DNA of 64,000 bases, from contig CAXXMD010000002.1 of assembly GCA_963675755.2 (NCBI GenBank), positions 1,120,001 through 1,184,000 of the forward strand, read 5' to 3'. The position numbers and the translations under genes are program-made. The notes under the pieces are model-generated. The model saw only the letters and a list, made by a program, of their open reading frames with translations, was not told where the DNA came from and made no database searches. Numbering within the stretch: the stretch's first letter is position 1; each line of letters begins with the position of its first letter. This document shows, piece by piece, positions 27,243 through 46,330 of this stretch. This stretch comes from a bacterium. Lineage in GTDB: Bacteria; Zhuqueibacterota; Zhuqueibacteria; Residuimicrobiales; Krinioviventaceae.

Positions 27243-28982
27243 TTATGCTGCGTTTTCTTTATAGATGCTTTTTTTATCATAATGTGTATGAAGCAGTTCA
27301 TGTGCTTTGTGACCATTAGGTTCACCCAGCCATTCTTCATACAATTTTATAACAGCAGGATTCTCATGAGATTTACGGATCTCCATTTTGCGGTCCTGCA
27401 GATAAATAGCTTCAGCGCGTTTCTTGCGGATATCTTCGGAAGTTGGGATCGGTTGACCACCACCACCAATACATCCACCGGGGCAAGCCATAATTTCAAT
27501 AAAATGATATTCAGCTTCACCGGCTGCAATTTTGTCTAACAATTTGCGTGCATTTGCCAAACCGTTAGAAACAGCAGCTTTAACTTTTAAACCGTTTAGG
27601 TCTATTTCTGCTTCTTTAATACCTTCTAAACCGCGAACATCTTTGATCTCTACATCATCAAGTGTTTTTTCAGTAACAATTTCATAAACGGTACGTAATG
27701 CAGCTTCCATTACACCACCGGTATTACCAAAAATAACAGCAGCACCTGTAGAGATACCCAATGGATCATCGTAATCTTCTTCATGCAGGTCAGGTAAATT
27801 GATACCAACCTGTTTCATCATAACAGCCGCTTCACGGGTGGTTAATACAGCGTCCACATCCTGAAAACCACTGTCATTCATTTCCGGACGACCACATTCA
27901 TATTTTTTAGCTGTACAAGGCATGATGGATACACAATAAATATCTTTGGGATCAATGCCATTCTTTTCAGCATAATATGTTTTAGCCAAAGCGCCAAACA
28001 TCTGCTGAGGTGATTTACAAGAAGATACATGCGGCAGTAAATCAGGATAAAAATGTTCAATAAAATTAATCCAGCCGGGGCTACATGAAGTTAACAATGG
28101 CAAAGTACCACCATTTTTTACACGACCCAACAGCTCGGTACCTTCTTCCATAATGGTTAAATCTGCGGTAAAGTCTGTATCAAAAACTTTATCGAATCCC
28201 AGCATTCTCAAACCGGTTACAAACTGGTTGGTTACCAGAGAACCAGGTGCCATTCCAAACATTTCACCGATTGACGCGCGAACCGCGGGTGCAGTTTGAA
28301 CAACAACATGTTTTGTTGGATCATCCAAAGCAGCCCAAACGCGTGCTGTATGATCATTTTCATACAATGCACCAACAGGACAACGATCGATACATTGACC
28401 ACAGGAAACACAAGCAACATCGCCAATGCCTTTACCAAATGGAGTATCAACCCAAACTTCGTATCCACGGCCTTCAAGACCAATTGCGCTAACGCTCTGT
28501 ACCAGTTCACAAGTCTGGATACAACGGCGGCACAAGATACATTTGGAAGGATCACGAACGATAGCGGCACTGGAAAGATCCAGTTCACCTTTACGTTCAT
28601 GGTATTCAAAACGATTTTCACGCAAGCCCAATTGTTCTGCGGCATCCTGCAATTCACAGAAATTATTGCGAACACATTCAGTACATTTCATGGGGTGACG
28701 AGACAACAACAACTCGAGCGCCATTTTACGAGAGTCGCGAACAGTTTGTGTGCGTGTTGAAACTTTCATCCCCTCCTGACATTGCCATGAGCAAGCAGTG
28801 CGTAACAAACGATCACCTTCGACCTCTACAACACATAAACGACATGCAGATACCGGCGGTAAATCAGGATGATAGCATAAACGGGGTATTTTAATATTTA
28901 ATTTTTCTGCTGCTTCTAGAACAGTCGTACCCTTGGGTACTGTTACTGTTTTACCATCTATTGTTAATGTGATATTTTCCAC
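27243..28982 (-). CDS. [FeFe]-hydrogenase group A catalytic subunit (HydA/HndD-like), copy 1
   Basis: 2Fe-2S (LC...CRLC...AC), His-ligated cluster (H..KC..C.RN..CEL), 2x4Fe-4S, H-cluster motifs TSCSPGW, MPCTAKKYE, EIMACPGGCIGGGGQP. Confidence 0.95.
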   Translation of the reverse strand: MENITLTIDGKTVTVPKGTTVLEAAEKLNIKIPRLCYHPDLPPVSACRLCVVEVEGDRLLRTACSWQCQEGMKVSTRTQTVRDSRKMALELLLSRHPMKCTECVRNNFCELQDAAEQLGLRENRFEYHERKGELDLSSAAIVRDPSKCILCRRCIQTCELVQSVSAIGLEGRGYEVWVDTPFGKGIGDVACVSCGQCIDRCPVGALYENDHTARVWAALDDPTKHVVVQTAPAVRASIGEMFGMAPGSLVTNQFVTGLRMLGFDKVFDTDFTADLTIMEEGTELLGRVKNGGTLPLLTSCSPGWINFIEHFYPDLLPHVSSCKSPQQMFGALAKTYYAEKNGIDPKDIYCVSIMPCTAKKYECGRPEMNDSGFQDVDAVLTTREAAVMMKQVGINLPDLHEEDYDDPLGISTGAAVIFGNTGGVMEAALRTVYEIVTEKTLDDVEIKDVRGLEGIKEAEIDLNGLKVKAAVSNGLANARKLLDKIAAGEAEYHFIEIMACPGGCIGGGGQPIPTSEDIRKKRAEAIYLQDRKMEIRKSHENPAVIKLYEEWLGEPNGHKAHELLHTHYDKKSIYKENAA

Positions 28983-29034
28983 ATTTAACCTCCATTGTGC
29001 GTATTATAACGTTAAACTCAACGTACATTATTTG

Positions 29035-30624
29035 TTATGCCACAGCTTCCGGTTGTTTTACCAGTTTTTCGAATTCAGGGCGGAAATGTTTCAGTGTTCC
29101 CAAAATAGGTACAGGAGCAGCCTGACCTAATCCACAGAACGCACCCTTCATCATTACAACTGCAAGTTCTTCAATCATATCGATGTCTTTGATCTCGCCT
29201 TCACCACTGCTCAATTTTTCAAGTCGTTCCAATAAACGGCCTGTTCCTTCGCGGCAGAGTGTACATTTACCACAAGATTCATGATTAAAGAATTCTACAA
29301 AATTGGTTACCAGATCAACAATTTCCTGATCTTCATCAACAACCAGTAAAGCACCTGAACCCAAACCTGAGCCAATTTCGCGCAAGTTTTCAGCTGCCAA
29401 TGGCAGATCCAGATGTTCGGAGGTTAAAATACCACCAGTAGTTCCACCCATTTGGGCAAGTTTAAAACCTTTACCATTGGGAATGCCCTGACCGATGTCA
29501 TAAATAATTTCTCGCAGGGTAATACCCATGGGTACTTCAATAAGGCCGGGATTATTGATATTGCCAACCATGGTAAATACCTTGGTACCCGGGCTTTTTT
29601 CAGTGCCCAGTGATTTATACCACTCGGCGCCTTTTAAGATAATCTGAGGAATATTCGCAAGTGTTTCCACGTTATTTACGATGGTCGGTTTTCCCCACAG
29701 ACCTTCGGAAGGTGGAAACGGCGGTTTATCGCGTGGTTCTCCGCGTTTTCCTTCAATGGATTCTATTAATGCGGTCTCCTCACCACAGATATAAGCGCCG
29801 GCCCCTTCACGAATTTCAAGATCAAATGAAAAATCTGTACCAAACAGATTATCACCCAGCAATCCGTTTTCTTTGGCCTGATCAATAGCGCGCTGCATCC
29901 GATCGATGGACATGCGGTATTCACCACGAATATAAACATAACCTTTGGTTGCACCAACTGCAAAACCAGCAAGTGCCATTCCCTCAATAACTGCATGTGG
30001 ATCACCTTCAAGGATCAGACGGTCTTTGAATGTACCCGGTTCACCTTCGTCAGCATTACATACAATGTATTTTTGCTCAGCGGTTTCTTTGGCAGCAAAA
30101 TCCCATTTCAAACCGGTTGGAAAAAATGCACCACCACGTCCCTGCAGGCCGGATTCTTTAACGGTACTGCGAACAGCATCGGGGTTCATTTCGGTCAATG
30201 CTTTACCAAATGCTTCATATCCGTCATGAGCAATGTATTCATCAATGTTATCAGGATCAATAACACCGGCATTTTTCAATACTACGCGTACTTGTTTTCC
30301 AAAACGTGGTGCAGGTACACCTGTCGTTTCGGTTTCGGGAATATCTGTATATTGTAAACGATCAACTTTACGACCTTTGATCAGGTGTTCAGAGATGATT
30401 TCAGAAACATCTTCAACCTTGACACCGGCATAATATACCGCGTCAGGGAAAACCACCATAACAACACCTTTATTATAAATACCCAGACTACCGGTTTCAA
30501 CAACACGGACTTCATCGGCAAGCGCTGCCATTTTCAGTTCGCGCTCCAATGCGTCTTTGACAGAACGGGCGCCCTGGGCAATTGTATGTCCATCCATTGC
30601 AATAAGTATGTGAATCCTATGCAT
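29035..30624 (-). CDS. NuoF-like flavin/NAD(P)H-binding hydrogenase subunit, short form without C-terminal ferredoxin
   Basis: GRGGAFFPTG, NADEGEPGTFKDR, GAGAYICGEE, ESCGKCTLCREG..CGLGQ. Cys-free N-terminal thioredoxin-like domain. Confidence 0.92.
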   Translation of the reverse strand: MHRIHILIAMDGHTIAQGARSVKDALERELKMAALADEVRVVETGSLGIYNKGVVMVVFPDAVYYAGVKVEDVSEIISEHLIKGRKVDRLQYTDIPETETTGVPAPRFGKQVRVVLKNAGVIDPDNIDEYIAHDGYEAFGKALTEMNPDAVRSTVKESGLQGRGGAFFPTGLKWDFAAKETAEQKYIVCNADEGEPGTFKDRLILEGDPHAVIEGMALAGFAVGATKGYVYIRGEYRMSIDRMQRAIDQAKENGLLGDNLFGTDFSFDLEIREGAGAYICGEETALIESIEGKRGEPRDKPPFPPSEGLWGKPTIVNNVETLANIPQIILKGAEWYKSLGTEKSPGTKVFTMVGNINNPGLIEVPMGITLREIIYDIGQGIPNGKGFKLAQMGGTTGGILTSEHLDLPLAAENLREIGSGLGSGALLVVDEDQEIVDLVTNFVEFFNHESCGKCTLCREGTGRLLERLEKLSSGEGEIKDIDMIEELAVVMMKGAFCGLGQAAPVPILGTLKHFRPEFEKLVKQPEAVA

Positions 30625-31099
30625 TTGCCTGTCCTTTCATTTTATAGTCTTTTAATATTGCCACTGCTTTTTCCGGAGTAAGATTACCATAAACTTCATC
30701 ATTGATCATCATAACCGGTGCAACCGCACAAAGTCCCAAACAGCTTGTAAATTCCAGAGTAAAAAGCTTGTCGGTAGTGGTTTCATTCATTTCAAGACCC
30801 AGATATTCTTTAATTTTTTCTAGAACATCTTTGGAACCTTTAACATGGCAGGGAGCATTGTTGCAGCAACGTACAATATATTTACCTTTATCTTCTGTAT
30901 TAAACAGACTATAAAAAGTAGCTACACCATAAATATCTGAAAGTGGTAAATTGGTAGCTTTTGCAACTTGAGTAAGTACGGGTTCTGAGAGAGAACCATA
31001 CTCTTTTTGAACATCTTTTAAAATATAAATAAGTGGTGTTTTTGTGTCAGCATAATTATTGACAATAACATCCACCTTGGTTAAATCTTGCATTCTCAA
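30617..31099 (-). CDS. NuoE-like 2Fe-2S hydrogenase subunit (HydC/HndA-like)
   Basis: GVATFYSLF, CNNAPCH, CLGLCAVAP. Confidence 0.93.
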   Translation of the reverse strand: MRMQDLTKVDVIVNNYADTKTPLIYILKDVQKEYGSLSEPVLTQVAKATNLPLSDIYGVATFYSLFNTEDKGKYIVRCCNNAPCHVKGSKDVLEKIKEYLGLEMNETTTDKLFTLEFTSCLGLCAVAPVMMINDEVYGNLTPEKAVAILKDYKMKGQANA

Positions 31100-31136
31100 C
31101 CTCCATAGATTGAATTTCCAGCGTTGCGGGTATCGT

Positions 31137-31499
31137 CTAGTTTAAATTAAATACATATTCCGAAACTACAGTATCGTTCACAATATGTTCTGCAATAATT
31201 TTACGAGCTATTTCAGCATTTACTTTACCATATGTAACGGTAGGTTTATCTGCCTGAGCGATCTGCAGCATGGGTTCATTATCACAATAACCCAAACAAC
31301 CTGTTTGCGTAACAACAGCGTCTTTGATACCACGCTTTTCAATCTCATCTAAAATCGCTGACATTGTGTCACGTGAACCAGCGGCGATCCCGCATGTTCC
31401 CATGGAAACAATTATGCGATATTTTGCATCGCTTTCCCGTGCAGCCATCTGAGATTTTGCCTTCTCCTTGATAGCACGGAGATCTGCTAATGTTTTCAC
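31137..31499 (-). CDS. Thioredoxin-like 2Fe-2S ferredoxin subunit (HndB/HydD-like)
   Basis: MGTCGIAAG, TGCLGYCDNEP, IIAEHI. GTG start after an AGGAGG RBS. Confidence 0.9.
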   Translation of the reverse strand: MKTLADLRAIKEKAKSQMAARESDAKYRIIVSMGTCGIAAGSRDTMSAILDEIEKRGIKDAVVTQTGCLGYCDNEPMLQIAQADKPTVTYGKVNAEIARKIIAEHIVNDTVVSEYVFNLN

Positions 31500-31733: not shown

Positions 31734-32297
31734 TTAATCTAATAAAACTTTACTTTTCACTTGAATGCGTTTCAACTCTGATTTGATATGTTTTTTTGCC
31801 GGTACAACCATATCAAAAAAGTCACAATCTTGTTCAGCCATTCTTGCAAGCAGCCAATATGAATCAAAGCATAAAAGTCCCTGATCAGTACGGTGAAGAT
31901 AACAAAAGTGCACATCAACAGCACCCATTACCAAATTTACAACCGTACCGGCAATATCGCCCAAAGGTGCCAGGTTTAAACTGTTGAGCTTGAAATCAGC
32001 AGTAACAGTTGTACCTTTACCCAATTTCGATTTCAAAATCATTCGTCCGCCGGCTTCATTTGCTGCCTGATTCCAGAATGGTAATCCCATTCCTACTGAA
32101 CGTGTGGTTCTTGAGGTAACAAAGGGATCAATAACTCTTGCCTGAGTTACTTCATCCATACCTCTTCCATTGTCACGTATCGTTACCGACAATCGGTTTT
32201 GGTTATGAGATTCATCAATGAACAAAATCACGCGCGAAGCCTCTGCTTCTATGGAATTTGTAACAATATCCAAAATATTTAATGATAATTCACGCAT
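31734..32297 (-). CDS. Stand-alone HATPase (GHKL) ATP-binding protein of hydrogenase loci
   Basis: ELSLNILDIVTNS, DNGRGM, DPFVTSRTTR.VGMG, LAPLGD. Confidence 0.85.
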   Translation of the reverse strand: MRELSLNILDIVTNSIEAEASRVILFIDESHNQNRLSVTIRDNGRGMDEVTQARVIDPFVTSRTTRSVGMGLPFWNQAANEAGGRMILKSKLGKGTTVTADFKLNSLNLAPLGDIAGTVVNLVMGAVDVHFCYLHRTDQGLLCFDSYWLLARMAEQDCDFFDMVVPAKKHIKSELKRIQVKSKVLLD

Positions 32298-33059
32298 CTA
32301 GCTCATCTCCTCCGGAAGTTCAAGAGAGGTTTTACGTCCATCCTGTTTTTTGAGTGCTTTACGAATCTCTTTAAAATCCGGTTTTTCGATATAAAACCAG
32401 GTATATTTCGAACCCAACATGCTTATATCGTGGGCATCAGAAGCTGTAATGATACTTTTGGTAGTATTGAGTAAAAAACGATGATTTTTTGAAACATTCT
32501 CAAATGGTTGTGCAATTTCAAGCGCATCGAATGGTAAATTGTCGGGAATGAATCCCAATGAGCGTAACAAACTGTACGATTTTCTATCAATATGCGCAGG
32601 ATAAATGATACCATTCAAATCTACAACCGTACTGGCAACCTGATAAATATTCAGGCTCACCGGCAGAGCAAACATGCGTTTACTCTCATCAATAATATTT
32701 TCCTGAAAATCACAAACATATTGCGGACCAAACATGGATGCATCGTATTCACCAGGCATCAAATGTTCATATATATAGCTTTGGAAATGCCCAACAGCAT
32801 CGAGGTCCGGAAATAAACATATAGAGTGCGCATCTTCACGTGTATAGACTTCCATACCAGGAATGACAAAGAGCTTTTCATTTTCAGCGGCTTTAACAAC
32901 AGCCTGTGTATTTTCTGCAGAGTTGTGATCCGTAATTGCCAGGATATCCAGTTCATGTTCAAGGGCTGTTTTTACAATATCAACAGGCCCCATTGTCAAT
33001 TCAGCACAAGGCGAAAGGACCGTATGAACATGCAAATCCGCTTTGTACCATTGCAGCAT
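32298..33059 (-). CDS. PHP-domain phosphoesterase
   Basis: DLHVHTVLSPC, ITDHN, PGME..T.EDAH, AHIDR, SDAH. Confidence 0.9.
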   Translation of the reverse strand: MLQWYKADLHVHTVLSPCAELTMGPVDIVKTALEHELDILAITDHNSAENTQAVVKAAENEKLFVIPGMEVYTREDAHSICLFPDLDAVGHFQSYIYEHLMPGEYDASMFGPQYVCDFQENIIDESKRMFALPVSLNIYQVASTVVDLNGIIYPAHIDRKSYSLLRSLGFIPDNLPFDALEIAQPFENVSKNHRFLLNTTKSIITASDAHDISMLGSKYTWFYIEKPDFKEIRKALKKQDGRKTSLELPEEMS

Positions 33060-33063
33060 TCAC

Positions 33064-33405
33064 CTATCTCCCCCGTAATCCAAAATCGTATAATTGGCCT
33101 GCAACATCAAAGGCAGACAGGGTTGTGCTGAAAACAGGTATATTTTTTTCTTTGGCTTTTTCAAGGGCAGAATCGTCAGGAACCAATCCTTCAGGAAAGA
33201 TAACTCCGGCAAGAGACTTGAAAAATACAATTGCAATAACGTTTTCATGTGTTTGATTGGTGATCCACAATGACCCTTTTAATGCATTAGCCATTGCATC
33301 ACTAAGAATATCAGACAAGTAACCAAAATCTACTTCTTTGTTTAGATTCTGTTCACCACTGAGTACTTTTAAATCTAACTTTTTTACGATCTCTTGCAAT
33401 ACCAT
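33064..33405 (-). CDS. DRTGG-domain protein
   Basis: GYLSDILSD, WIT.QTH.NVIA, IPVFST. Confidence 0.85.
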   Translation of the reverse strand: MVLQEIVKKLDLKVLSGEQNLNKEVDFGYLSDILSDAMANALKGSLWITNQTHENVIAIVFFKSLAGVIFPEGLVPDDSALEKAKEKNIPVFSTTLSAFDVAGQLYDFGLRGR

Positions 33406-33447
33406 GGGATCTCCCTTCCTCCAAAAAATTCGAACCCATATTATGAA

Positions 33448-34947
33448 TTATTCCATTTTTGAAGCCGGCAGGAACACTGAAAAAGTTGTTCCTTTTTCAT
33501 ACTCGCTTTCAATTTCGATCTTGCCGGCATATGCATCTACAATTTTTTTAACAATTGTTAGACCCAATCCGGTACCGGTTATTTCTCGGGTGTGTTCATT
33601 CTTGGCCCTGAAAAAATCTTCAAACAAGCGTTCTTTATCTTCAGGACGCATCCCTATTCCGGTATCGGTAACATCAATTCGAATATAATGACCATTACGA
33701 CTGCCGTTTATGGTTATGGAACCGTTCTCACGATTGTATTGAATTGCATTGGATATTACTTGAGTAAATAAACGTTGAAGATCAATTCGGTCTGCGTCAA
33801 CAAACAATTGTTCTGTACCACTAATGCGGACTTCAAGGTTGTGCTCCTTGATATCATTTTTCATAAAGTTAAGCCGCTCAGATAAAAGCTCGGAAATATC
33901 CTGTCTGTTAATTTCGCGTCTTACCTTGCCAGCTTCCAGGCGGGTAACGTTTAGCAAATCGTTAATCAGGTTTACAAGCGATTTTGTACGATCTAATGAC
34001 CGTTTTAAATAATTCTCATACAAGTCAGGATCATCGCCCAATGTTTTATCTACAACCAGCTCAAGATAACCCTGTACCGCAGACAATGGTGATTTTAATT
34101 CATGGGCAGCCATATCTACAAATTGAGAACGCATGATATCAATTTTTTTCAGTTCAGAAATATCACGCAAGACAGACACAACACCCAACAATTCGCCTTT
34201 GTCTATAATAGGAGTTGTATTGGCCATTATCACCAGTTTTGCCGGTGGATGAATTATAATCTCTTGCTGTATTGCTTTAACCTGTTCTTTTTTGCTAAAG
34301 ATCTCTCGCAATTGTTTGTTCAACTCGTCTGGCAAAAACTGCCAAACTTTATCGCCTACTTCAATCTTGCTTTCAACGTTTAATAATTTTATAAACCCGG
34401 GATTAAAAAGTACAACCTGCCCTTCCTGGTTGATAACCATAATACCATCATCCAAAGAATTAATAATGGTGCGCATACGCGATTGCTCATGAGCAACCTG
34501 CAGCAATCTTCTTTCCTGCTCTTCACGTAATCTTCTGGCTTCTAAAATATACCAGCGACGTTCAAGAGCACGGTTTACCAGGATTTGCAGTTCATCTGGT
34601 TCAAAAGGCTTGGGTATATACTGGTAAGCTCCCAGTCGTGTGGTTTCAACAGCAGTTTCAATTGAGGCATATGCTGTTACAATCACACAAATAGCTTCGG
34701 GGTATACCAGTTTGATCTCACGTAATACCTGCGTACCCTCCACATCCGGCATACGTAAATCAATAAAGTACAGATCATACTCGTTGGCAATACCCTTTTC
34801 AATGCCTTCTGTACCGTTCGAGGCCGTATCTACATTGTGACCATACATCTCGAGGATGCGTCTAATGCCTTCACGCATCCCCAATTCATCATCAACGACC
34901 AGTATTTTACCTTGTTCAATCCTCAAGTTCTTTAAAAATCTTTTCAC
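33448..34947 (-). CDS. Receiver-PAS-histidine kinase (cytoplasmic hybrid), copy 1; exact start uncertain
   Basis: ILVVDDE...DLRMP...KPF; PAS region; AHELKSPL, NAIQY, DTGIG, GTGLGL. Confidence 0.9.
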   Translation of the reverse strand: MKRFLKNLRIEQGKILVVDDELGMREGIRRILEMYGHNVDTASNGTEGIEKGIANEYDLYFIDLRMPDVEGTQVLREIKLVYPEAICVIVTAYASIETAVETTRLGAYQYIPKPFEPDELQILVNRALERRWYILEARRLREEQERRLLQVAHEQSRMRTIINSLDDGIMVINQEGQVVLFNPGFIKLLNVESKIEVGDKVWQFLPDELNKQLREIFSKKEQVKAIQQEIIIHPPAKLVIMANTTPIIDKGELLGVVSVLRDISELKKIDIMRSQFVDMAAHELKSPLSAVQGYLELVVDKTLGDDPDLYENYLKRSLDRTKSLVNLINDLLNVTRLEAGKVRREINRQDISELLSERLNFMKNDIKEHNLEVRISGTEQLFVDADRIDLQRLFTQVISNAIQYNRENGSITINGSRNGHYIRIDVTDTGIGMRPEDKERLFEDFFRAKNEHTREITGTGLGLTIVKKIVDAYAGKIEIESEYEKGTTFSVFLPASKME

Positions 34948-35320
34948 TTAAATATTGTACCAGATCTCTGGGAGAAATGGGTTTTTCCAAATAATCATCT
35001 GCCTTGATCCAGTTTTTCTCTTCATCTGTATCGGTAGAAAAACGGATTCCGGTATCGTGACCGGCTGAAGTCATGATGATTACACGAACGTTTTCAGTAT
35101 TGGGCAGTTTTTTGATTCTGTGGCAAAGTACAAAACCGGAATCAAAATGCTCCATTGCAAGGTCAACAACAACTACAGGTGGATTAAATTCTTTGAATTT
35201 TTCCAAACCTTCTACACTGTCATAAGCAGTTTCTACAGTATAGCCTTCTTTTTCCAAAACGGGTTTATAAATATTGATCAAATCTGTATCGTCATCAACC
35301 ATTAAAATCTTTTTATCCAT
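34916..35320 (-). CDS. Stand-alone response regulator
   Basis: MVDDD, DLAM, MTS, EKP. Confidence 0.9.
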   Translation of the reverse strand: MDKKILMVDDDTDLINIYKPVLEKEGYTVETAYDSVEGLEKFKEFNPPVVVVDLAMEHFDSGFVLCHRIKKLPNTENVRVIIMTSAGHDTGIRFSTDTDEEKNWIKADDYLEKPISPRDLVQYLSEKIFKELED

Positions 35321-35334: not shown

Positions 35335-35727
35335 TTAATTCTTGATTTTCAACATTTCAATTACTTTATCATACAACTGTGTATGTGTAACGGGTTTTTC
35401 CATAAAATCATCAACCGGGTTCCAATTATCATCGGGGCCAATGGTGAGATTAAAATTGTGCTCCTGATTCACACTGGTCATCATCAGGATCAAAGTATCT
35501 TTAATATCATCATCTTTACGAATTTCACGGGCAACTTCAAAGCCCTCACCAACTTCGGTCATCATGACGTCGAGTATAACCAAATCCGGTCTTTCGGATT
35601 TGACAAGTTTCAGTCCATCTGAACCGTTATAGGCCTTGCATACACGGAAACCCTTTGATGTAAAAAAGGCACGGTTCATTTCGACCAGATCAACATCATC
35701 ATCAATTATTAATAATTTATAACTCAT
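35335..35727 (-). CDS. Stand-alone response regulator
   Basis: IIDDD, LDVMM, MTS, EKP. Confidence 0.9.
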   Translation of the reverse strand: MSYKLLIIDDDVDLVEMNRAFFTSKGFRVCKAYNGSDGLKLVKSERPDLVILDVMMTEVGEGFEVAREIRKDDDIKDTLILMMTSVNQEHNFNLTIGPDDNWNPVDDFMEKPVTHTQLYDKVIEMLKIKN

Positions 35728-39483: not shown

Positions 39484-41493
39484 TTATTCCACATAAATGG
39501 CATCAAATTTACAATTGGCTCTACACTGATCACAGCGTATACATTTATCATCAATAATGTAATGTGCTTTTTTACGTTCGCCCAGAATAGCATTTTCAGG
39601 ACATTTTCTTGCACAAACCGTACAACCGGTACATTTATCTGTATCAATTTTATATGTCAACAGGTCTCTACAAACACCAGCGCGGCATTTGCGATCGTAC
39701 AAGTGTTCTTCATATTCTTCACGAAAATAACGTATTGTGCTCAAAACAGGATTCGCAGCAGTTTGTCCCAGTCCACACAATGAAGTATTAATAATCACTT
39801 CTGACAGACGTTCAAGGTAAACCATACCCTGGAAACGCATTAGTGAATCTTCGGCAGATTTTTCAGCACGATGACTGGATGACAAGCGTTCTAAAATTTC
39901 CAACAACCGTTTTGTACCTTCACGACAAGGAATACATTTACCGCATGATTCTGACTGGATAAATGTCATAAAGTACTTGGCAAGATCAACCATACAGGTT
40001 GTTTCATCCATAACCACCAGACCACCTGATCCCATCATGGCGCCAATGCTCTTGAGTGATTCATAATCAACAGGAGTATCGATAACAGAATCTGGTAATG
40101 CACCACCAGAAGGACCACCAATCTGTACAGCTTTGAACTCTTTACCATCAGGAATGCCACCACCAATATCAAAAACGATTTCACGAAGTGTAACACCCAT
40201 AGGAACTTCAACCAGACCTACATTTTTCACTTTACCGGAAAGAGCAAAGATCTTGGTACCTTTTGAATTTTCTGTACCAATCTTTGAATACCAGTCAGCG
40301 CCATTGCGCAAGAGTACCGGTACATTTGCAAAAGTTTCAACGTTATTAATAATGGTCGGTTTACCAAACAATCCTGCATCTGAAGGATAAGGTGGTTTAG
40401 GTCGCGGCATACCGCGTTTACCTTCAATAGAATTCAACAATGCGGTTTCTTCACCACAAACAAATGCGCCCGCACCTTTTTTAATCTTTAAATTAAAACT
40501 AAATCCTGTACCCAGAATATTGTCGCCCAACAGGCCATAGGCTTTAGCGTCTTTGATCGTTTTTTCAAGTCTTGCAATAGCAAGTGGGTATTCAGCACGA
40601 CAGTAAACATAACCTTCATCTGCACCAATTGCAAAAGCGGCAATAGCCATACCTTCTACCATCAAATGAGGATCACCTTCCATTACCGCACGGTCCATAA
40701 ATGCACCAGGATCGCCTTCATCCGCATTACAAACAACATATTTTTTATCACCTTTAGACTGAGCAGCCAGTTTCCATTTCAAACCGGTTGGAAAACCACC
40801 GCCGCCACGACCGCGAAGCCCGCCGTCCAAAACTTCTTTAACCACTTTTTCAGAATCCATTTGGGTCAAAGCTTTGGTCAAAGCCTGGTAACCGCCATTG
40901 GAGATATATTGGTCAATACTTTCAGGGTCAATTACACCACAATTGGCCAAAACGACTTTTTTCTGTTTTTTAAAGAATGGAATATCTTCCATTTTATTAA
41001 CACTGGACCAGTCACCTGCATGACCATTTTTCTCATATACACCCAGTGTTTTTCCTACAATCACTTGTTTATTGATTATGGTCTGTTCTACAATTTCAGG
41101 AACATCTTCAACAGTAACTTCACAATAACTGATTCTTGGATAATTGGGTAATTTAATATCAACAATTACTTCACGTGCGCAATATCCAACACAGCCGGTA
41201 GAGATCAGCTTTGCATTAATATTTTTTTCATTCAATAATGTTTTAAAAGCATCATATATTTTTTGCGCGCCATTTGCTAAACCACAGGTACCCATACCCA
41301 GCAGGATAACAGGTTCCTCGTGGTTTTCTAAAAGAATTTCATCTTTTAAACTTTTAACAGCCTGCAATTCAGCTTCCGAATGGCCATTTCCGTCGCCATT
41401 GGAACTCAGACATTCTATTAATGATTTCACCGGAAAGTCCTGATCTTTCCATAAATTGGTGAAAAGGTTTTTATATGTATTCATATCAGCCAC
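39484..41493 (-). CDS. HydB flavin subunit with electron-bifurcating signatures
   Basis: GMGTCG..TGCVGYC, ADEGDPGAFMDR, GAGAFVCGEE, GGPSGG, DETTCMVD, EH...C..GVC, C-terminal 2x4Fe-4S. Likely GTG start at 41493 (GAGG RBS). Confidence 0.92.
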   Translation of the reverse strand: MADMNTYKNLFTNLWKDQDFPVKSLIECLSSNGDGNGHSEAELQAVKSLKDEILLENHEEPVILLGMGTCGLANGAQKIYDAFKTLLNEKNINAKLISTGCVGYCAREVIVDIKLPNYPRISYCEVTVEDVPEIVEQTIINKQVIVGKTLGVYEKNGHAGDWSSVNKMEDIPFFKKQKKVVLANCGVIDPESIDQYISNGGYQALTKALTQMDSEKVVKEVLDGGLRGRGGGGFPTGLKWKLAAQSKGDKKYVVCNADEGDPGAFMDRAVMEGDPHLMVEGMAIAAFAIGADEGYVYCRAEYPLAIARLEKTIKDAKAYGLLGDNILGTGFSFNLKIKKGAGAFVCGEETALLNSIEGKRGMPRPKPPYPSDAGLFGKPTIINNVETFANVPVLLRNGADWYSKIGTENSKGTKIFALSGKVKNVGLVEVPMGVTLREIVFDIGGGIPDGKEFKAVQIGGPSGGALPDSVIDTPVDYESLKSIGAMMGSGGLVVMDETTCMVDLAKYFMTFIQSESCGKCIPCREGTKRLLEILERLSSSHRAEKSAEDSLMRFQGMVYLERLSEVIINTSLCGLGQTAANPVLSTIRYFREEYEEHLYDRKCRAGVCRDLLTYKIDTDKCTGCTVCARKCPENAILGERKKAHYIIDDKCIRCDQCRANCKFDAIYVE

Positions 41494-41506
41494 AATATCC
41501 TCTTTT

Positions 41507-41959
41507 TTATTTTTGCCGGTATTCTGCAATTAATTTTTGTATTTTTTTAACGGTCAAATGACCATAATATTCATCATTGATTGATATTACCGGGGCTATA
41601 CTGCATGCGCCAATACAAGCAACGGTTTCGATTGAAAATTGTAAATCTTTGGTTGTATCTCCAGCTGAAATTTCCAGTTCATTTTCTAATGTTTGTAAAA
41701 TATCCAAAGAACCTTTCACATGACATGCTGTACCACGACAAACGCGAATAATATATTTGCCCAAAGGCTTTAATCGAAATTGGTTATAAAATGTAGCCAC
41801 ACCATAAATACGGCTGACAGGCAGCTTGGTATGAGTTGCTACTTTATTCATTTCTTCTTCAGACAAGTATCCCTGAACTTCCTGAATATCCTGCAAAATA
41901 GGAATCAGGACTGATGGATCACCCGGAGGATACTTTTCAAAAATCTGTTGCGTCTCCAT
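41507..41959 (-). CDS. HydC/NuoE-like 2Fe-2S subunit
   Basis: GVATFYNQF, CRGTACH, CIGACSIAP. Confidence 0.93.
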   Translation of the reverse strand: METQQIFEKYPPGDPSVLIPILQDIQEVQGYLSEEEMNKVATHTKLPVSRIYGVATFYNQFRLKPLGKYIIRVCRGTACHVKGSLDILQTLENELEISAGDTTKDLQFSIETVACIGACSIAPVISINDEYYGHLTVKKIQKLIAEYRQK

Positions 41960-41985
41960 TAAAAAACCTCTCCATTAGTGTGTTT

Positions 41986-43455
41986 TTATTTAATATTTTC
42001 TTCTATTACCGGCAAAACAACAGTAAAAGTAGAACCGTTGCCCAGATCGCTGTCCATTTCAATATACCCGTTATGGTCTTCAATAATACGTTTGGCAATT
42101 GAAAGGCCCAGGCCTGTACCGGAAATACGCTGAGACACTGCATTCTTGGCACGGTAAAATTCGTCAAAGATCTTGTGTTTATCTTCTTCAGACATGCCAA
42201 TACCGGTGTCTTTAACAATAACATTGATTTTATTTTTTTCTACTGTTACTTGTACATGAACACTCTTGTGTTCGGGTGTATATTTAATTGCATTACTAAC
42301 CAGATTATCAAAAACTCTGCCCATATCTTCTTCGTTACCACGAATTGGGGGTAATTGATCAGGAACATCGCAAGCAAAGTTAATATCTTTGGCTTTGGCT
42401 TCGTTTTTATAAAATTCGCAGGTCCCACGAAGCACAGAAGAAATATCAAGCGCAGACATGACCTTTGCAGTCACCTTTTTCTCGGCACGAGTCAAATCTA
42501 AAAGATCGTTTACCATGGCCAACAGTTCATTTGCCCGATCTCGAGACTTTGTAATATAATCTTTTTCTTTTTCAGGATTCCCTGTGATAACACCTTCCAA
42601 AATCAGATTCAAATAACCTTCAATCGCTCCCAAAGGTGCTTTGAGTTCATGAGCAACAAGACTGAGAAAATCCGTCTTCATCTGGTCAATCTTTTTTTCT
42701 TCAGAGACATCAATCAAAACCGTCACGGTTCCAATCAATGCGCCATTTTCATCAATTACAGGAGTAATATTAGGCTGAAGAACCCTGCCATTACCCAGGT
42801 TTACTTCAAATTTTTCAAGAATCTCACAAGAAGTAACTTTGCTCAATGCATCTGCAATCTTTTTTTCAAGATCAGGATTGCTCAACAATCCCAATACATT
42901 TTTGCCAAATACATCTCCATCCTTTAAACGCAGCATTTTGAGAGCTGCAGGATTTATGAGCAAGATTTGCCCTTCTTTATTGGTAGCAATAACACCTTCA
43001 CTCATGCAGTTGATTATGGTGTTGGTGCGTGTTTTCTCGATAATGTGTTCTGCACGCAACTTTTCTGCTTCTAACAAAAGTCTGCGTTTTTCGAGCGCGC
43101 GTTCAATTTTGGCTCTGAATTCATCGGGAGTAAAAGGTTTGGCCAAATAATCGTAAGCGCCTTTTTTTACAGCATCTACCGCGTTTTCAATGGTAGCATA
43201 ACCGGTGATAACAATGGGTACAATCTTTTCATCGATCTTGCGAATTTCTTCAAGAAACTGCATACCATCCATGCGGGGCATCATCAGGTCAGTGACAACA
43301 AGATCATAGTTGTTGTTGCGGATTTTTTCAAGTCCTTCCATTCCATCTTCGGCAAGGTCAACCTCGTATTTGGAAAGTTCAAGAATCCGTTCACAGCCAA
43401 TACGGCTTACTTCGTCATCATCAACAACCAGAACTTTGATATTTTCAAGAGTCAT
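41986..43455 (-). CDS. Receiver-PAS-histidine kinase, copy 2
   Basis: VLVVDDD, DLMMP, KPF; PAS region; AHELKAPL, NAIKY, DTGIG, GTGLGL. Confidence 0.92.
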   Translation of the reverse strand: MTLENIKVLVVDDDEVSRIGCERILELSKYEVDLAEDGMEGLEKIRNNNYDLVVTDLMMPRMDGMQFLEEIRKIDEKIVPIVITGYATIENAVDAVKKGAYDYLAKPFTPDEFRAKIERALEKRRLLLEAEKLRAEHIIEKTRTNTIINCMSEGVIATNKEGQILLINPAALKMLRLKDGDVFGKNVLGLLSNPDLEKKIADALSKVTSCEILEKFEVNLGNGRVLQPNITPVIDENGALIGTVTVLIDVSEEKKIDQMKTDFLSLVAHELKAPLGAIEGYLNLILEGVITGNPEKEKDYITKSRDRANELLAMVNDLLDLTRAEKKVTAKVMSALDISSVLRGTCEFYKNEAKAKDINFACDVPDQLPPIRGNEEDMGRVFDNLVSNAIKYTPEHKSVHVQVTVEKNKINVIVKDTGIGMSEEDKHKIFDEFYRAKNAVSQRISGTGLGLSIAKRIIEDHNGYIEMDSDLGNGSTFTVVLPVIEENIK

Positions 43456-43850
43456 GCTTGATCCTGATTTAATAATTTCTCAACGCGTTCAATCAATTCT
43501 GAAGGCTTGAGCGGTTTAGCTGCAAAATCATCAACTTTCATCCATTCTTTGTCATTTGAAAGTTGAAAAGTAAAGCCTGTTTTTTCCTGGGCTGAGGAAA
43601 GCATTAAAATGGGCATATGCTTCATATTCTCATCTTCTCTTACAGCATATGCAACTGTAAACCCGGCGTCACGTTCTTCCATCATCAAGTCCAGGACCAG
43701 CAGGTCATACTGGTTTTCACGGAGTTTCTTCAATGCATCAGATGACGTATATGCTTCTTCAACCGTATACCCTTTCGATTCCAGAATCGTTTTGTTGATC
43801 TCGATAAAATCCGGATCATCATCTGCCAGTAAAATTTTAATATCTTTCAT
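43452..43850 (-). CDS. Stand-alone response regulator
   Basis: LADDD, LDLMM, LSS, AKP. Start ATG 43850 after AGGAG. Confidence 0.9.
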   Translation of the reverse strand: MKDIKILLADDDPDFIEINKTILESKGYTVEEAYTSSDALKKLRENQYDLLVLDLMMEERDAGFTVAYAVREDENMKHMPILMLSSAQEKTGFTFQLSNDKEWMKVDDFAAKPLKPSELIERVEKLLNQDQA

Positions 43851-43884
43851 ATTCTCTCCTGTTTTCAAGAAAACAGACTATTAT

Positions 43885-44256
43885 TTAAATACGGTTAACA
43901 TCCAGCGCTGACTGAATGGCCGTTGTTAAATCATTTATACCAAAAGAGTTCAAATGGTAATAGAAAACCTGTTCTTTACGGATTGCTGTTTCCAGATCTC
44001 TGGAATTGGAACGAGATTGAACAATAATTCGTGATGCCGGGGAACTTCCTTTTAAAATGCGGAGTGTTTGGTTAATTTGAATGTCTTCCAATCCCGCATC
44101 AATTATTATCACATCAAAATGGTGTTCCTGGGCCTGTTGTATACCTGCAAACGGATCATTAACGATCTTGTAATTTACTTTTTTTGATTCCAGAAAAAGT
44201 TCAAGATCATGATTGGTTTCGCTTACAGAAGTTGAAATTAACAGACAATTCATCAC
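43885..44256 (-). CDS. Atypical (pseudo-)receiver domain protein
   Basis: Receiver-like pattern FDVIIIDAG...RIIVQS...VFYYHL. Lacks the acidic pocket and the conserved Lys. Confidence 0.7.
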   Translation of the reverse strand: MMNCLLISTSVSETNHDLELFLESKKVNYKIVNDPFAGIQQAQEHHFDVIIIDAGLEDIQINQTLRILKGSSPASRIIVQSRSNSRDLETAIRKEQVFYYHLNSFGINDLTTAIQSALDVNRI

Positions 44257-44290
44257 AATACCAAAATTTAGAATTATTCGTCAGTTATAT

Positions 44291-44306
44291 ATCAATATGT
44301 GTGCCA
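44291..44306 (-). promoter_or_regulatory. Candidate sigma54 -24/-12 promoter
   Basis: TGGCAC-ACATA-TTGAT on the minus strand (consensus TGGCAC-N5-TTGCW, one mismatch), ~35 nt before the first gene of the cluster. Confidence 0.6.
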
Positions 44307-44422
44307 CAGATTCAAGCTAAAAAACACACGACAGAATCAACCGTAAACCATTCAAAAACAAATAATTAGAAAAACAGGCATTGAGAGGTATTGATGGTGT
44401 TATATCATTTATGAGAGAGTCA

Positions 44423-44443
44423 AGTGTGGAGTTTCTCCACACT
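44423..44443. promoter_or_regulatory. Perfect palindrome, candidate enhancer (UAS) for the sigma54 activator
   Basis: AGTGTGGAG-TTT-CTCCACACT, ~120 bp upstream of the -24 element, with no U-tract. Confidence 0.5.
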
Positions 44444-45761
44444 ACAAATCGTACTTGCGGATCTTGTCGTAAAGGGTTTTTCGATCAATTTGGAGGGCTT
44501 TGGCGCTCTTGCTAATATTACCCTGAAATTTTTCAAGGATGTTATGAATGTGTCGTTTTTCCATGTCAGCAAGAGACAATGTATCTGTTTCTGACAGGGT
44601 TGTAGAGTGAATATGAGCAGGCAAACTGGATTCATGAATGACCAGTGATTCTTCAATCACAATTGCACGCTCTATAACATTTTCCAGTTCTCGTATATTG
44701 CCTGGCCAATGGTACCCCATCAACGCATTAAATGCATTATCAGAAACGGATTGAATATCATTCCCCCGTCGTTTATGATTATGCTTTTGAATAAAATGCT
44801 CTATCAATAATGGAATATCATCTTTACGTTCACGCAAAGGTGGTAAATGAATTGGTATAACACTAATTCTGTAATAAAGGTCTTCACGAAACGTACCCTG
44901 ATCAACAGAATCTTTAAGATCACGATTAGTAGCAGCAATGATACGCACATCCACTTTTATGGATTGGGTATCTCCCACCCTGCGGATCTCTTTTTCCTGT
45001 ATTGCTCGTAATATTTTAGCCTGAACATTTAAAGAAATATTGCCAATTTCATCAAAAAAGAAAGTTCCCTTGTTTGCAAGCTCAAAAGCGCCATGTTTTG
45101 TGGTATGCGCACCTGTAAAGGATCCTTTGGCATGACCAAACAACTCACTCTCAAAAAGTGATTCCACAAGTGACCCGCAGTCCATTGCAAAAAAGGGCTT
45201 GTTTGTGCGTAAACTGGCAGCATGTATTGCACGGGCTATCATCTCTTTGCCAGTACCGCTTTCACCCAAAACCAAAACAGTGCTTTCAGTGGGTGCAATT
45301 TTATCGATCATTTCAAATATGTGGCGCATTTGCTTTGACTGACCAATAATTCGCATGGGTTTTCCATCAAAATCAAATTCATAAAATCCATTCTGGTCAG
45401 ATTTACGATTTTCCATGATTTGATGAACCAGTTCCATGGCCTGATCAGGCTGAAAAGGTTTGGACAAATAATCAAATGCACCAATACGGCCCGCTTCTAC
45501 AGCAGTCTCCAGAGAAGCATGCCCGGTAATAATAATGACTTCAAGTACAGGATTATCTTTTTTCAATTCCTTTAGCAGCTCAATTCCGTTCATGCCTGGA
45601 AGTTGATAATCCACAAACGCAACATCATAATTCTTTTTATGAATCTGCTCCAAGGCGTTTATAGCATTTTCACAAACATCAACATTCAGGCCTTTGTCTT
45701 TAAAATAAAGAGCAAAAGCATCACGAAACGAGAGATTGTCATCAATTAGCAAAATATTCAA
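44442..45761 (-). CDS. Sigma54-dependent response regulator (NtrC/AtoC family)
   Basis: Receiver domain; GESGTGKE, ESELFGH.KGSFTGA, FFDEIG, REDLYYR, WPGNIRELEN; Fis-type HTH. Confidence 0.95.
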   Translation of the reverse strand: MNILLIDDNLSFRDAFALYFKDKGLNVDVCENAINALEQIHKKNYDVAFVDYQLPGMNGIELLKELKKDNPVLEVIIITGHASLETAVEAGRIGAFDYLSKPFQPDQAMELVHQIMENRKSDQNGFYEFDFDGKPMRIIGQSKQMRHIFEMIDKIAPTESTVLVLGESGTGKEMIARAIHAASLRTNKPFFAMDCGSLVESLFESELFGHAKGSFTGAHTTKHGAFELANKGTFFFDEIGNISLNVQAKILRAIQEKEIRRVGDTQSIKVDVRIIAATNRDLKDSVDQGTFREDLYYRISVIPIHLPPLRERKDDIPLLIEHFIQKHNHKRRGNDIQSVSDNAFNALMGYHWPGNIRELENVIERAIVIEESLVIHESSLPAHIHSTTLSETDTLSLADMEKRHIHNILEKFQGNISKSAKALQIDRKTLYDKIRKYDL

Positions 45762-45878
45762 AATTCAATTCTTTCTTTTAAGAATGGAATATAAACAGAA
45801 AAAATGAATAATGAAATAATTGATTTTTGTAAGAAACTGTAAAAACTTTTAAAATACCGATTATGAAATGATTTTAAC

Positions 45879-45907
45879 TTGACATTAGGGTTTGTTTTAA
45901 TTATAAT
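45879..45907 (+). promoter_or_regulatory. Consensus sigma70 promoter
   Basis: Exact TTGACA-17 nt-TATAAT upstream of the response regulator at 45962. Confidence 0.75.
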
Positions 45908-45961
45908 TACTATTAGTTTTTTTAAACATTCGGCCATCGAGGAAAAGGAGTTAAAAGCATT

Positions 45962-46330
45962 ATGGCAAGCATTTTAGTCATAGATGATGAAGAAGAGGTT
46001 CGTGATATAATCAAACAAATCCTTGAACATGCGGGATATACAGTTTATACTGCGGGTGACGGAAATCAGGGTATTAAAACCTATCGTGAAAACCCGACAG
46101 ATATAGTCATAACTGATATCATCATGCCAGACAAAGAAGGTATTGAAACCATAATTGAATTAAAAACCGAATTCCCCGAAGTAAAAATTATTGCAATTTC
46201 GGGTGGCGGACGTGTAGGGCCGATGGATTATCTTAAAATGTCTCAAAAATTGGGTGCGGTTAAAAGTTTCACCAAACCCTTTCAACGCCAGGAATTACTG
46301 GACGCAGTGAGTGAATTATTAGATAACTAG
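45962..46330 (+). CDS. Stand-alone response regulator
   Basis: VIDDE, TDIIMP, ISGG, KPF. Confidence 0.92.
   Translation: MASILVIDDEEEVRDIIKQILEHAGYTVYTAGDGNQGIKTYRENPTDIVITDIIMPDKEGIETIIELKTEFPEVKIIAISGGGRVGPMDYLKMSQKLGAVKSFTKPFQRQELLDAVSELLDN

Follow-up and report, generated by a model that had tools for sequence, protein, structure and literature searches.

Here we describe a hydrogenase and signalling gene cluster within a 64,000-nucleotide window of bacterial DNA (C2:1120001-1184000, where C2 is contig CAXXMD010000002.1), which belongs to a 6.48-Mb, three-contig, 98% complete assembly from the order Residuimicrobiales (GCA_963675755.2). The cluster consists of 18 co-directional, tightly packed genes (g01–g18) that run along the minus strand from position 45761 to 27243 and encode two [FeFe]-hydrogenases, a kinase carrying an H-cluster domain, and a series of two-component signalling proteins. 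Intergenic gaps measure at most 52 nucleotides (nt), the exceptions being 185 nt between g01 and g02 and 234 nt between g14 and g15. Domains were assigned with Pfam and protein families with NCBIfam models, and solved homologues were taken from the Protein Data Bank (PDB); a sister genome, with proteins 98% identical, is available as a closed, one-contig chromosome of 6.5 Mb. Genes and promoters lie on the minus strand unless a plus sign is given.

An earlier reading of this DNA from the letters alone (hereafter the original prediction) had listed the same genes, and Pfam returned its domains in the order it gave and on the minus strand. Its tally of eight receiver domains, three histidine kinases without transmembrane segments and a single DNA-binding output also held up. 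With the divergent gene g19 counted in, Pfam recognizes seven canonical receivers and one degenerate receiver, three HisKA kinases and one helix-turn-helix (HTH) domain, and the 19-residue Kyte–Doolittle mean in the three kinases stays at or below 1.54, consistent with no membrane segment. Seven receivers retain the acidic pocket, the phospho-accepting Asp, the Ser/Thr and the Lys. The degenerate one, g02, lacks the pocket and the conserved Lys and scores 29.7 bits as a receiver, just under the gathering score of 30.2, so that the label pseudo-receiver given to it earlier is a fair one.

The first gene, g01 (44442–45761), encodes an NtrC-family sigma54 enhancer-binding response regulator with the Pfam domains REC, Sigma54_activat and HTH_8; a Walker A motif (GESGTGKE) and a GSFTGA loop can be read from its sequence. 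It is followed by a palindrome, TGTGGAG-N3-CTCCACA (44425–44441), and by a sigma54-type promoter, TGGCAC-N5-TTGA (44292–44306), which lies 36 nt before the start of g02 (43885–44256), the first gene of the presumed sigma54 unit. Next come g03 (43452–43868), a stand-alone receiver of what we call the S type (an insertion after β3 in a PhoB/OmpR-like REC domain), and g04 (41986–43455), a hybrid kinase of NtrC-like REC-PAS-HisKA-HATPase layout. Downstream of the first hydrogenase set and the H-cluster kinase g08 are two further S-type receivers, g09 (35335–35727) and g10 (34916–35320), and a second REC-PAS-HisKA-HATPase hybrid with an NtrC-like receiver, g11 (33448–34947); g10 and g11 belong to a conserved core, which in the case of g10 extends as far as the Bacteroidota. 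A trio of genes then encodes a DRTGG-domain protein (g12, 33064–33405), a PHP-family phosphoesterase (g13, 32298–33059) and a GHKL ATPase with a HATPase domain lacking HisKA (g14, 31734–32297). The second hydrogenase set closes the cluster.

The first hydrogenase set comprises HydC1, a NuoE-like [2Fe-2S] subunit (g05, 41507–41959; PF01257, 182 bits), the flavoprotein subunit HydB1 (g06, 39484–41529), which is NuoF-like with a C-terminal Fer4 pair, and the catalytic subunit HydA1 (g07, 37756–39468). The second set comprises a small thioredoxin-like [2Fe-2S] protein resembling HydD/BfuD (g15, 31137–31499; PF01257 at 28.4 bits, with Cys motifs read from the sequence), a second NuoE-like subunit that is 47% identical to g05 (g16, 30617–31099), a short NuoF-like subunit of 529 amino acids (g17, 29035–30624) and HydA2 (g18, 27243–28982). 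HydA1 and HydA2, both M3-type catalytic subunits, are 54% identical, and the B subunits g06 and g17 are 48% identical. Both HydA proteins pass the NCBIfam model for ‘NADH-dependent [FeFe] hydrogenase, group A6’ (NF040763; 908.8 bits for HydA1 and 898.2 bits for HydA2, cut-off 765), and the best PDB matches of HydA1 are the bifurcating HydA subunits of T. kivui and A. woodii, with expect values (E) of ~1e-202.

The flavoprotein subunits differ in the residues used to tell bifurcating from non-bifurcating enzymes. According to passages of Losey et al. 2020 (PMC7311640), bifurcating B subunits carry Ala/Glu-232, Met-234, Phe-367, GGPSG at 427-431 and extra Fe-S domains, and non-bifurcating ones carry Thr/Ser-232, Lys/Ser/Ala-234 and Tyr-367 and lack GGPSG (T. 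maritima numbering). The corresponding motifs of g06 (GAFMD, GAFVCGEE and GGPSG) show the bifurcating state throughout, as they do in 21/21 related loci; g06 also carries thioredoxin-like Cys motifs near its N-terminus and a 2x[4Fe-4S] domain at its C-terminus, with the Fer4 pair at residues 626-678. The motifs of g17 (GTFKD, GAYICGEE and GGTTG) are in the non-bifurcating state throughout, and this state recurs in all 18 related g17 copies, one of which has no match to the third motif. Moreover, g17 lacks the C-terminal Fer4 pair, its N-terminal domain has lost its cysteines, and direct alignment with the bifurcating B subunits of A. mobile and A. woodii shows it to differ at every diagnostic position. 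By the published criteria, HydB1 is therefore assigned from its residues to the bifurcating type and g17 to the non-bifurcating type, just as the original prediction had proposed for the hydC-hydB-hydA set and the short nuoF-like gene, and at every position. The same HydB patterns matched only two of 26 Bacteroidota loci and are uninformative for the class of those enzymes. According to passages of a survey of Hydrogenedentota, a genome with the non-bifurcating sub-type nearly always has a bifurcating one as well (PMC11406978).

Two details of these subunits are recorded here. The L1 motif reads TSCSPGW in both HydA1 and HydA2, where the textbook form is TSCCPxW; the variant is also present in 29/31 related HydA frames and in A. 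woodii HydA1 (PDB), and it has been noted for Melainabacteria (PMC3787301). The called TTG start of g06 overlaps g05 by 23 nt and adds ~74 N-terminal residues beyond the solved homologues, which align from residue 74-76 at best; judging from this alignment, the true start may lie further downstream.

Directly after hydA1 lies g08 (35742–37754), which encodes a putative H2 sensor kinase. The protein combines two [4Fe-4S] clusters (Fer4), a sensor-type H-cluster domain, a 4-Cys FeS motif (PF04060, residues 379-408), a predicted coiled coil, and HisKA and HATPase domains, and thus has three accessory clusters besides the H-domain. Its transmitter is complete, with an H box (HEVNNPL), an N box and G boxes read from the sequence. 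All four H-cluster cysteines are retained: one in (T/A)S(S/A)CP, one in PC.AKK and two in LFCEGC. When aligned with the HydA proteins of the window, g08 shows the substitutions C299→S (TSSCP), M353→G (IGPC) and M497→L (VLFCEGC) in CpI numbering, and it has no conserved equivalents of the proton-path glutamates E279 and E282. These three positions are the ones that passages of a study of T. maritima HydS describe as altered in sensory enzymes, with Ser at ~10% and Gly at ~51% of sensory sequences at the respective positions (PMC10055695). The motifs (T/A)S(S/A)CP, IGPC.AKK.E and LFCEGC are shared by 21/21 g08 orthologues, and a CxxCx4C..C pattern follows the H-domain in 20/21; strict motif patterns missed seven of the 21, and reading of the segments showed that all 21 conform. 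Taken together, these features identify g08, at the level of sequence, as an NtrB/AtoS-like kinase joined to an H-cluster domain of the sensor type, that is, a putative H2 sensor of the HydDB group C kind. A further peculiarity is that the last two H-cluster cysteines stand one residue closer together (C-E-G-C) than in the catalytic C-P-G-G-C, in 21/21 orthologues; a paralogue at C2:409081 has the same spacing, and the PAS-type sensor encoded in this genome does not.

Among 8000 scored candidates, 5225 relatives of g08 pass E 1e-30, partial matches included. The best 120 all contain PF02906, PF04060 and HisKA, and 118 of them contain HATPase, the other two being shorter partial entries; named sources among these 120 include KSB1, Calditrichia, Bacteroidota, Ignavibacteria and Chloroflexi, and the naming used by JGI is ‘NtrC family sensor kinase’. 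Genome surveys have catalogued the class. Passages of the HydDB paper list class C1 as ‘histidine kinase-linked (putative)’ (PMC5037454). Those of the Hydrogenedentota survey describe a kinase-bearing ‘BfuT’ of sub-type V BfuABC adjoining A3 enzymes as well as C1 proteins with a HATPase domain, 21/53 of them beside A3 genes, and file kinase-bearing relatives under C3 and HATPase-bearing ones under C1 (PMC11406978). A cultured organism, Petrimonas mucosa, has a C1 gene (ING2E5A_0849) near Hnd, according to part of another report (PMC7768429). The H-cluster/kinase fusion is thus a class already catalogued in genome surveys, with a putative sensory role. The original prediction knew of no characterised circuit with this layout, which remains true of the word ‘characterised’; kinase-bearing group C proteins beside A3 enzymes, and the coexistence of bifurcating and non-bifurcating types, are nonetheless on record in surveys. 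Literature searches returned no description of the extended layout, in which the sensor lies in a sigma54 operon with receivers, hybrid kinases and a second hydrogenase. The component parts are of known kinds; what is new is their extended arrangement, together with a sigma54 promoter and a candidate operator.

Seven H-cluster reading frames are present in the genome, three of them within the window. A second kinase-fused sensor (C2:409081-411129) is 48% identical to g08; immediately downstream of it lies a membrane hydrogenase set of the group 4 [NiFe] type with NuoH-, NuoB-, NuoC- and NuoD-like genes and an antiporter-like gene, which extends to about C2:418810. At C2:2275444-2280959, one cluster encodes a PAS-type sensor hydrogenase, a SpoIIE phosphatase and a group-B-like hydrogenase, the last with Rex beside it. 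At C3:2875250-2877403, an H-cluster domain is fused to the signalling domain of a chemoreceptor (MCP). Judging from these domain architectures, all three HydDB group C sensor designs occur in one genome.

The control region between g01 and g02 contains two conserved elements. In an alignment of seven loci, both the palindrome and the promoter are conserved in flanks that are otherwise 57% identical on average. The palindrome, TGTGGAG-AAA-CTCCACA, begins one base past the g01 stop codon, and its centre lies ~128 nt upstream of the −24 element. An upstream activator site is expected about 80–150 bp before a sigma54 promoter. The central positions of the arms (GTG.GAG and TCCACA) are invariant in the seven loci. 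In the 6.48-Mb genome the palindrome occurs once, and its relaxed form, TGTGG-N7-CCACA, occurs five times where 3.2 are expected. Forms of TGTGG..CCACA were matched in five of 11 more distant loci, with imperfect versions recognizable by eye in two more, and where both elements were matched, their distance upstream of the −24 element is 118-134 nt. The outer TGTGG and CCACA are fixed while the inner positions drift without compensatory changes, and therefore a protein-binding site fits the variation better than an RNA hairpin. From this pattern, we regard the palindrome as a candidate activator site for g01, which has the features of an NtrC-type activator (REC, a sigma54-interaction AAA+ domain with a GAFTGA-type loop, and HTH).

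The promoter itself recurs at the same place in every locus examined. A sigma54-type element precedes g02 in 7/7 aligned loci, and a TGG(C/T)A-N6-TTG element does so in 11/11 more distant ones; with ~0.02 chance −24/−12 matches expected per locus (our estimate from pattern length), such an element was found in all 18 loci. The genome also encodes rpoN (206 bits). To gauge the −12 sequence, genome-wide matches to TGGCAY-N5-TTGN were counted, and for each −12 variant the share lying in an intergenic stretch that precedes a gene was taken. This share was 24/41 for TTGC, 14/53 for TTGA, 16/55 for TTGT and 2/39 for TTGG. The TTGA variant thus behaves like a promoter element in the source genome, because it is enriched at promoter positions (14/53 versus 2/39 for TTGG).

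Downstream, an intrinsic terminator follows hydA2 (27211–27238; a 12-bp stem with six G-C pairs, then a T run). Within the 234-nt gap between g14 and g15, no terminator-like site was found in the window, sigma70-like matches were weak and no more frequent than expected by chance, and conservation among the aligned relatives was limited to the start of g15 and the ribosome-binding site; five other genera in the alignment have a clearly shorter gap. As read from these signals, a single long transcript, most likely driven by g01, would span g02 to hydA2. Co-expression of the two enzymes appears likelier than a transcriptional switch between them, because the gap has neither a terminator-like site nor conserved sequence. 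The switch between two thermodynamic modes put forward in the original prediction therefore finds no support at the level of transcription, since both hydrogenase sets lie between one conserved promoter (44292–44306) and one strong terminator (27211–27238). With no sequence support for differential transcription, any mode switching would have to act on proteins.

The layout is conserved well beyond the source genome. A full-length g08 match at ≥60% identity was found in 28/41 genomes of the order, source genome included, and fragments were found in three more. Of seven KSB1-type loci, two are short contigs, and the remaining five have g01–g18 in the same order; because this order recurs in related loci, the layout is not due to chance. 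Among 14 further loci (families f1, f2 and f4), g05–g11 are present in all, g15–g18 in 12 with the remaining two stopping at a contig end, and g01 in 11, with no g01 match within the stretch examined in the other three (all f1). The pseudo-receiver gene g02 follows g01 in 5/5 loci of the first set that hold g01 and was found in 12/14 of the further loci. In all loci extending that far, the DRTGG-PHP-GHKL trio lies directly upstream of the non-bifurcating set; a literature search for this trio with hydrogenases gave nothing mentioning ‘DRTGG’. The pair g03 and g04 is more restricted, occurring together only in six genomes of family f1 and in no more than part of the source's own family. In place of this pair, families f2 and f4 have a g04/g11-like kinase of 341-413 amino acids upstream of the activator gene (L059-L065).

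A smaller core, consisting of hydC, hydB, hydA, the H-cluster kinase, a stand-alone receiver and a receiver–kinase hybrid, was found in 26 Bacteroidota-type loci. Both signalling genes follow the sensor in 26/26 of them, and hydA lies upstream in 24/26. The one Bacteroidota locus that was scanned in full additionally encodes Rex, a radical-SAM/BATS protein and, together with a SpoIIE phosphatase, a second sensor, which lacks PAS. A search for synteny in KSB1-type and Bacteroidota-type genomes, proposed as a check of the original prediction, thus shows the layout to be conserved across three KSB1-like families and, as this smaller core, in Bacteroidota.

Sequence resemblance among the receivers and kinases suggests how they may be wired. 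Among NCBIfam models, g01 scores best with AtoC (420 bits) and ZraR (412 bits), in each case below the cut-off; the best kinase families of g08 are AtoS (228 bits) and ZraS (190 bits), and ZraS is also the top PDB match of its kinase half. By this family resemblance, we infer that the AtoS/ZraS-like kinase g08 pairs with the AtoC/ZraR-like regulator g01. The transmitters of g04 and g11 are closest to PnpS, PhoR and WalK, and the receivers of g03, g09 and g10 to those of PhoB, OmpR and YycF. The receivers fall into three sets: an NtrC-like set of g01, g04 and g11 (34-45% mutual identity), a stand-alone set of g03, g09 and g10 (27-37% identity, with a common insertion), and the degenerate g02 alone. 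The closest paralogue of g04 is g11 (45% identical in REC and 38% in the kinase). A trio of H-cluster kinase, S-type receiver and NtrC-like REC-kinase also directly follows hydCBA in Bacteroidota, where the hybrid has an NtrC-like receiver and an HELKSP H box and its neighbour is a receiver of the insertion-bearing type. The simplest reading of these relationships would be two tiers, in which the sensor kinase signals to NtrC-like receivers and the hybrid kinases signal to output-less ones.

Based on these data, we propose that the cluster is a KSB1-like bacterium's conserved operon of ~17 kb, in which two paralogous NADH-linked [FeFe]-hydrogenases are probably placed under a two-component circuit that is most likely hydrogen-responsive. 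In the proposed mechanism, H2 would set the redox state of the g08 H-cluster, and the kinase would receive the signal through the C-terminal 4-Cys cluster and then the coiled coil. g08 would then phosphorylate the three NtrC-like receivers, namely g01 and the N-termini of g04 and g11. Phosphorylated g01 could bind the palindrome and fire the sigma54 promoter, so that the sensor, the relay proteins and both hydrogenases would be produced together. In parallel, the PhoR-like hybrid kinases g04 and g11 would relay to g03, g09 and g10, the stand-alone receivers that lack an output domain; these would act on proteins, possibly the hydrogenases or the DRTGG-PHP-GHKL trio. The H2/redox-sensing phosphorelay of the original prediction finds partial support in this respect, since g08 keeps the four cysteines with three sensory substitutions and g01 is the sole DNA-binding protein; the phosphate wiring, by comparison, was traced by resemblance.

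Several observations weigh against this proposal. The partner assignments come from family resemblance and gene neighbourhood, not from specificity residues or assays. A look-up of sequencing runs returned six sets from two studies, none of them recorded as RNA. The −12 element reads TTGA, not the textbook TTGC, and an unconserved internal promoter may lie in the 234-nt g14–g15 gap. The Bacteroidota sensor module has no adjoining sigma54 activator, and therefore g01 is a lineage-specific output. For the second enzyme, the solved structures that g17 most resembles come from bifurcating B subunits (644 and 629 bits), ahead of complex I NuoF at 448 bits, and the criteria separating bifurcating from non-bifurcating enzymes were derived from few characterised enzymes. 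Finally, HydE, HydF and HydG were not found in the source genome (98% complete) or in the closed sister genome, and without these maturases the assembly of the [2Fe] subcluster, which is the basis of both sensing and catalysis, is unexplained.

The missing maturases are the most surprising observation of this analysis. In the source genome, the HydG and HydE models (TIGR03955 and TIGR03956) had no match, and the best score for HydF (TIGR03918) was 100.6 bits against a cut-off of 325.55. BATS and HydF_dimer domains were absent from the source genome, the closed sister genome and two other good genomes of the family (G000, the source, with G001, G010 and G014). Searches by tblastn with a Bacteroidales HydG-like protein and with the HydG and HydF of relatives recovered only short radical-SAM or GTPase stretches. 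Across the order, HydG scored over the cut-off in 5/41 genomes, with any match in 3/29 high-quality genomes. In one relative (G004), a hydE-hydF-hydG block is present on a contig (C28) that is otherwise syntenic with the source genome, and because of this position the difference in maturase presence reflects gain or loss, not binning. Plasmid-borne maturases may have been missed by binning. The H-cluster motifs are intact in the genomes that lack maturases, with L2 and L3 in 31/31 HydA frames, L1 in 29/31 and the g08 motifs in 21/21. Without HydE, HydF and HydG, H-cluster assembly, and hence H2 sensing, would have to rest on a route other than the usual one. There is precedent in maturase-less archaea and some eukaryotes with active [FeFe]-hydrogenases, for which passages of a recent paper propose an alternative pathway (Cell 2024, PMC11216029). 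Our search of the literature on maturase-less [FeFe]-hydrogenases, which was partly unfocused, turned up only this archaeal and eukaryotic case and no bacterial report; the absence of HydE, HydF and HydG from a closed genome with seven H-cluster proteins would extend the puzzle to bacteria.

This absence bears directly on what g08 detects. If no [2Fe] subcluster were made, g08 and its paralogues would not be H2 sensors at all and would hold only [4Fe-4S] clusters, reporting redox or iron-sulfur status, such as that of the ferredoxin/NADH pool, to the same relay. The three accessory clusters of g08 would suit such a role, as would the scarcity of HydG in the order and its absence from the source and closed sister genomes. 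However, residues of the [2Fe] site, including the bridging Cys, the Lys of PC.AKK and the L1–L3 motifs of HydA, are conserved in the very genomes that lack maturases, and active enzymes are on record, in the passages cited above, for maturase-less archaea and some eukaryotes (PMC11216029). We therefore consider a purely redox-sensing role improbable. A different question is whether the circuit chooses between the enzymes. The original prediction held that it toggles, by expression or by action on proteins, between the bifurcating enzyme at high H2 and the NADH-only enzyme at very low H2. The two flavoprotein subunits do have opposite signatures that are conserved across the order; between the enzyme sets lie five receivers that are output-less or hybrid, together with a trio of ATPase/phosphoesterase genes that is uncharacterised, the trio directly upstream of the non-bifurcating set in every locus reaching that far; and the co-occurrence of both types in nearly all Hydrogenedentota genomes with the non-bifurcating sub-type, as passages of the survey report, speaks for the same view (PMC11406978). 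Yet one conserved promoter and one terminator serve both sets, and the intervening g14–g15 gap, which lacks a terminator-like site or conserved sequence, is clearly shorter in five other genera. Toggling of this kind is accordingly conceivable but rather unlikely.

The control region admits a reading in which neither of its elements serves g01: the palindrome would be the terminator hairpin of g01 or the operator of a Rex-type global redox repressor, and the sigma54-like match would be fortuitous. The palindrome starts one base after the g01 stop and could form an 8-bp hairpin, Rex is encoded in the genome beside another hydrogenase cluster, and the −12 element is non-canonical. A terminator hairpin, however, would be expected to fit poorly with the lack of a following T run and with arm changes among relatives that are not compensatory, and perfect Rex-type sites (TTGTGAA..TTCACAA) found elsewhere in the genome have another half-site and spacing. 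The palindrome is moreover unique in the genome and keeps its spacing of 118-134 nt to the −24 element where matched, and the −24/−12 element is present in all 18 loci. On these grounds, a terminator or a Rex operator was judged highly unlikely. At the other extreme, the proposed hydrogen-responsive operon can be extended into a bolder and decidedly speculative reading, to which we give little credence at present. The whole order would build working H-clusters by an unknown HydEFG-free route, in the source genome for the two catalytic HydA proteins of the operon, a third hydrogenase and four sensor-type proteins. The operon would then be a two-tier, hydrogen-gauged phosphorelay with one branch acting on the sigma54 promoter and the other, made up of the output-less receivers and the DRTGG-PHP-GHKL trio, setting the sharing of electrons between the bifurcating and the NADH-only enzyme at the protein level.

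The sensor module is reminiscent of several known systems. Closest are the loci that combine kinase-bearing group C proteins with A3 HydABC (HydDB C1, BfuT, Petrimonas and metagenome-assembled genomes of Cloacimonadota), where, according to passages of the respective reports, an H-cluster domain is joined or linked to a kinase beside a bifurcating-type hydrogenase and is proposed to sense H2 (PMC5037454, PMC11406978, PMC7768429, PMC8542988). Unlike in those loci, the sensor here belongs to a sigma54 operon that also has a candidate operator and an NtrC-type activator; its further companions are a pseudo-receiver, two hybrid kinases, three receivers that stand alone, and a second hydrogenase, of the non-bifurcating type. 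T. maritima HydS, as described in the passages cited above, shares with g08 the N-terminal [4Fe-4S] clusters, the H-domain and the C-terminal 4-Cys cluster, and, as in HydS, g08 has other residues in place of the proton-relay Cys and of the two methionines close to the H-cluster (PMC10055695). The residue states differ, being Ser/Gly/Leu in g08 and Ala/Gly/Ser in T. maritima HydS, and the C-E-G-C of g08 is one residue shorter between the last two cluster cysteines. Whereas HydS ends in a PAS domain and relies on separate partners, g08 ends in a full HisKA-HATPase transmitter.

The [NiFe] regulatory hydrogenases provide the nearest functional analogy. In HydDB group 2b, exemplified by HoxBC-HoxJ-HoxA of Cupriavidus necator, the H2 signal of a slow sensor hydrogenase is passed to a histidine kinase and from there to a regulator controlling hydrogenase genes, as passages of the HydDB paper outline (PMC5037454). 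The metal sites and families are unrelated ([NiFe] versus [FeFe]), and sensor and kinase are fused here and separate there. HoxA, like the predicted g01 product, is an NtrC-type sigma54 activator. The Hox system has no counterpart of the extra receivers and hybrid kinases seen here. The second enzyme of Ruminococcus albus, HydA2, is monomeric and ferredoxin-dependent. The concept of a sensing hydrogenase that chooses between two thermodynamically different enzymes is nevertheless common to the R. albus trio of HydABC, HydA2 and HydS, in mentions within PMC8924675, and to the present cluster. Unlike in R. albus, the second enzyme here is of the NADH-only NuoEF-HydA type, a histidine kinase relay is presumably involved, and both enzymes are apparently co-transcribed. 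With those NADH-dependent [FeFe]-hydrogenases that do not bifurcate, as characterised in passages of two reports, g17 shares the Thr/Lys pair, the Tyr, the lack of GGPSG and the lack of extra Fe-S domains (PMC7311640, PMC11406978). It departs from them in its separate small [2Fe-2S] protein g15, its co-located bifurcating set, and solved relatives that are nearest among bifurcating B subunits.

In review passages, the sensory assignment of group C [FeFe]-hydrogenases is called putative, and whether these proteins sense H2, and how the signal leaves the protein, are questions that the cluster could address. It is an unusually complete and compact test case, with a sensor–kinase fusion, one candidate activator, one genome-unique candidate operator and a defined sigma54 promoter, and its parts could be reconstructed as a reporter in a laboratory host. 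Moreover, bifurcating- and non-bifurcating-type hydrogenases under one control region are well suited to asking how anaerobes match the re-oxidation of NADH and ferredoxin to ambient H2.

The surroundings of the cluster contain further genes. The divergent response regulator named in the original prediction as a part of the circuit, g19 (45962–46330, +; REC, 86.9 bits), is indeed a stand-alone receiver divergent from g01. Its membership of the circuit is doubtful, because g19 travels with its neighbour, a gene for a 465-amino-acid Oxidoreduct_C protein (46376-47773), in close-genera loci (L020-L023), and neither gene adjoins the cluster in another locus (L026). Consistent with this, a sigma70-like promoter with a 12-of-12 match lies ahead of g19 (45879-45907, +), and g19 is probably part of a neighbouring operon with the oxidoreductase gene. 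Past the operon terminator on the other side lies a butyrate kinase gene (26052-27125, minus; 484.9 bits, cut-off 222), which is kept at this place in L020-L023. Elsewhere in the window, a large cytoplasmic hybrid kinase (58741-61698, +) combines a PocR sensory domain with PAS, HisKA and HATPase domains and two receiver domains.

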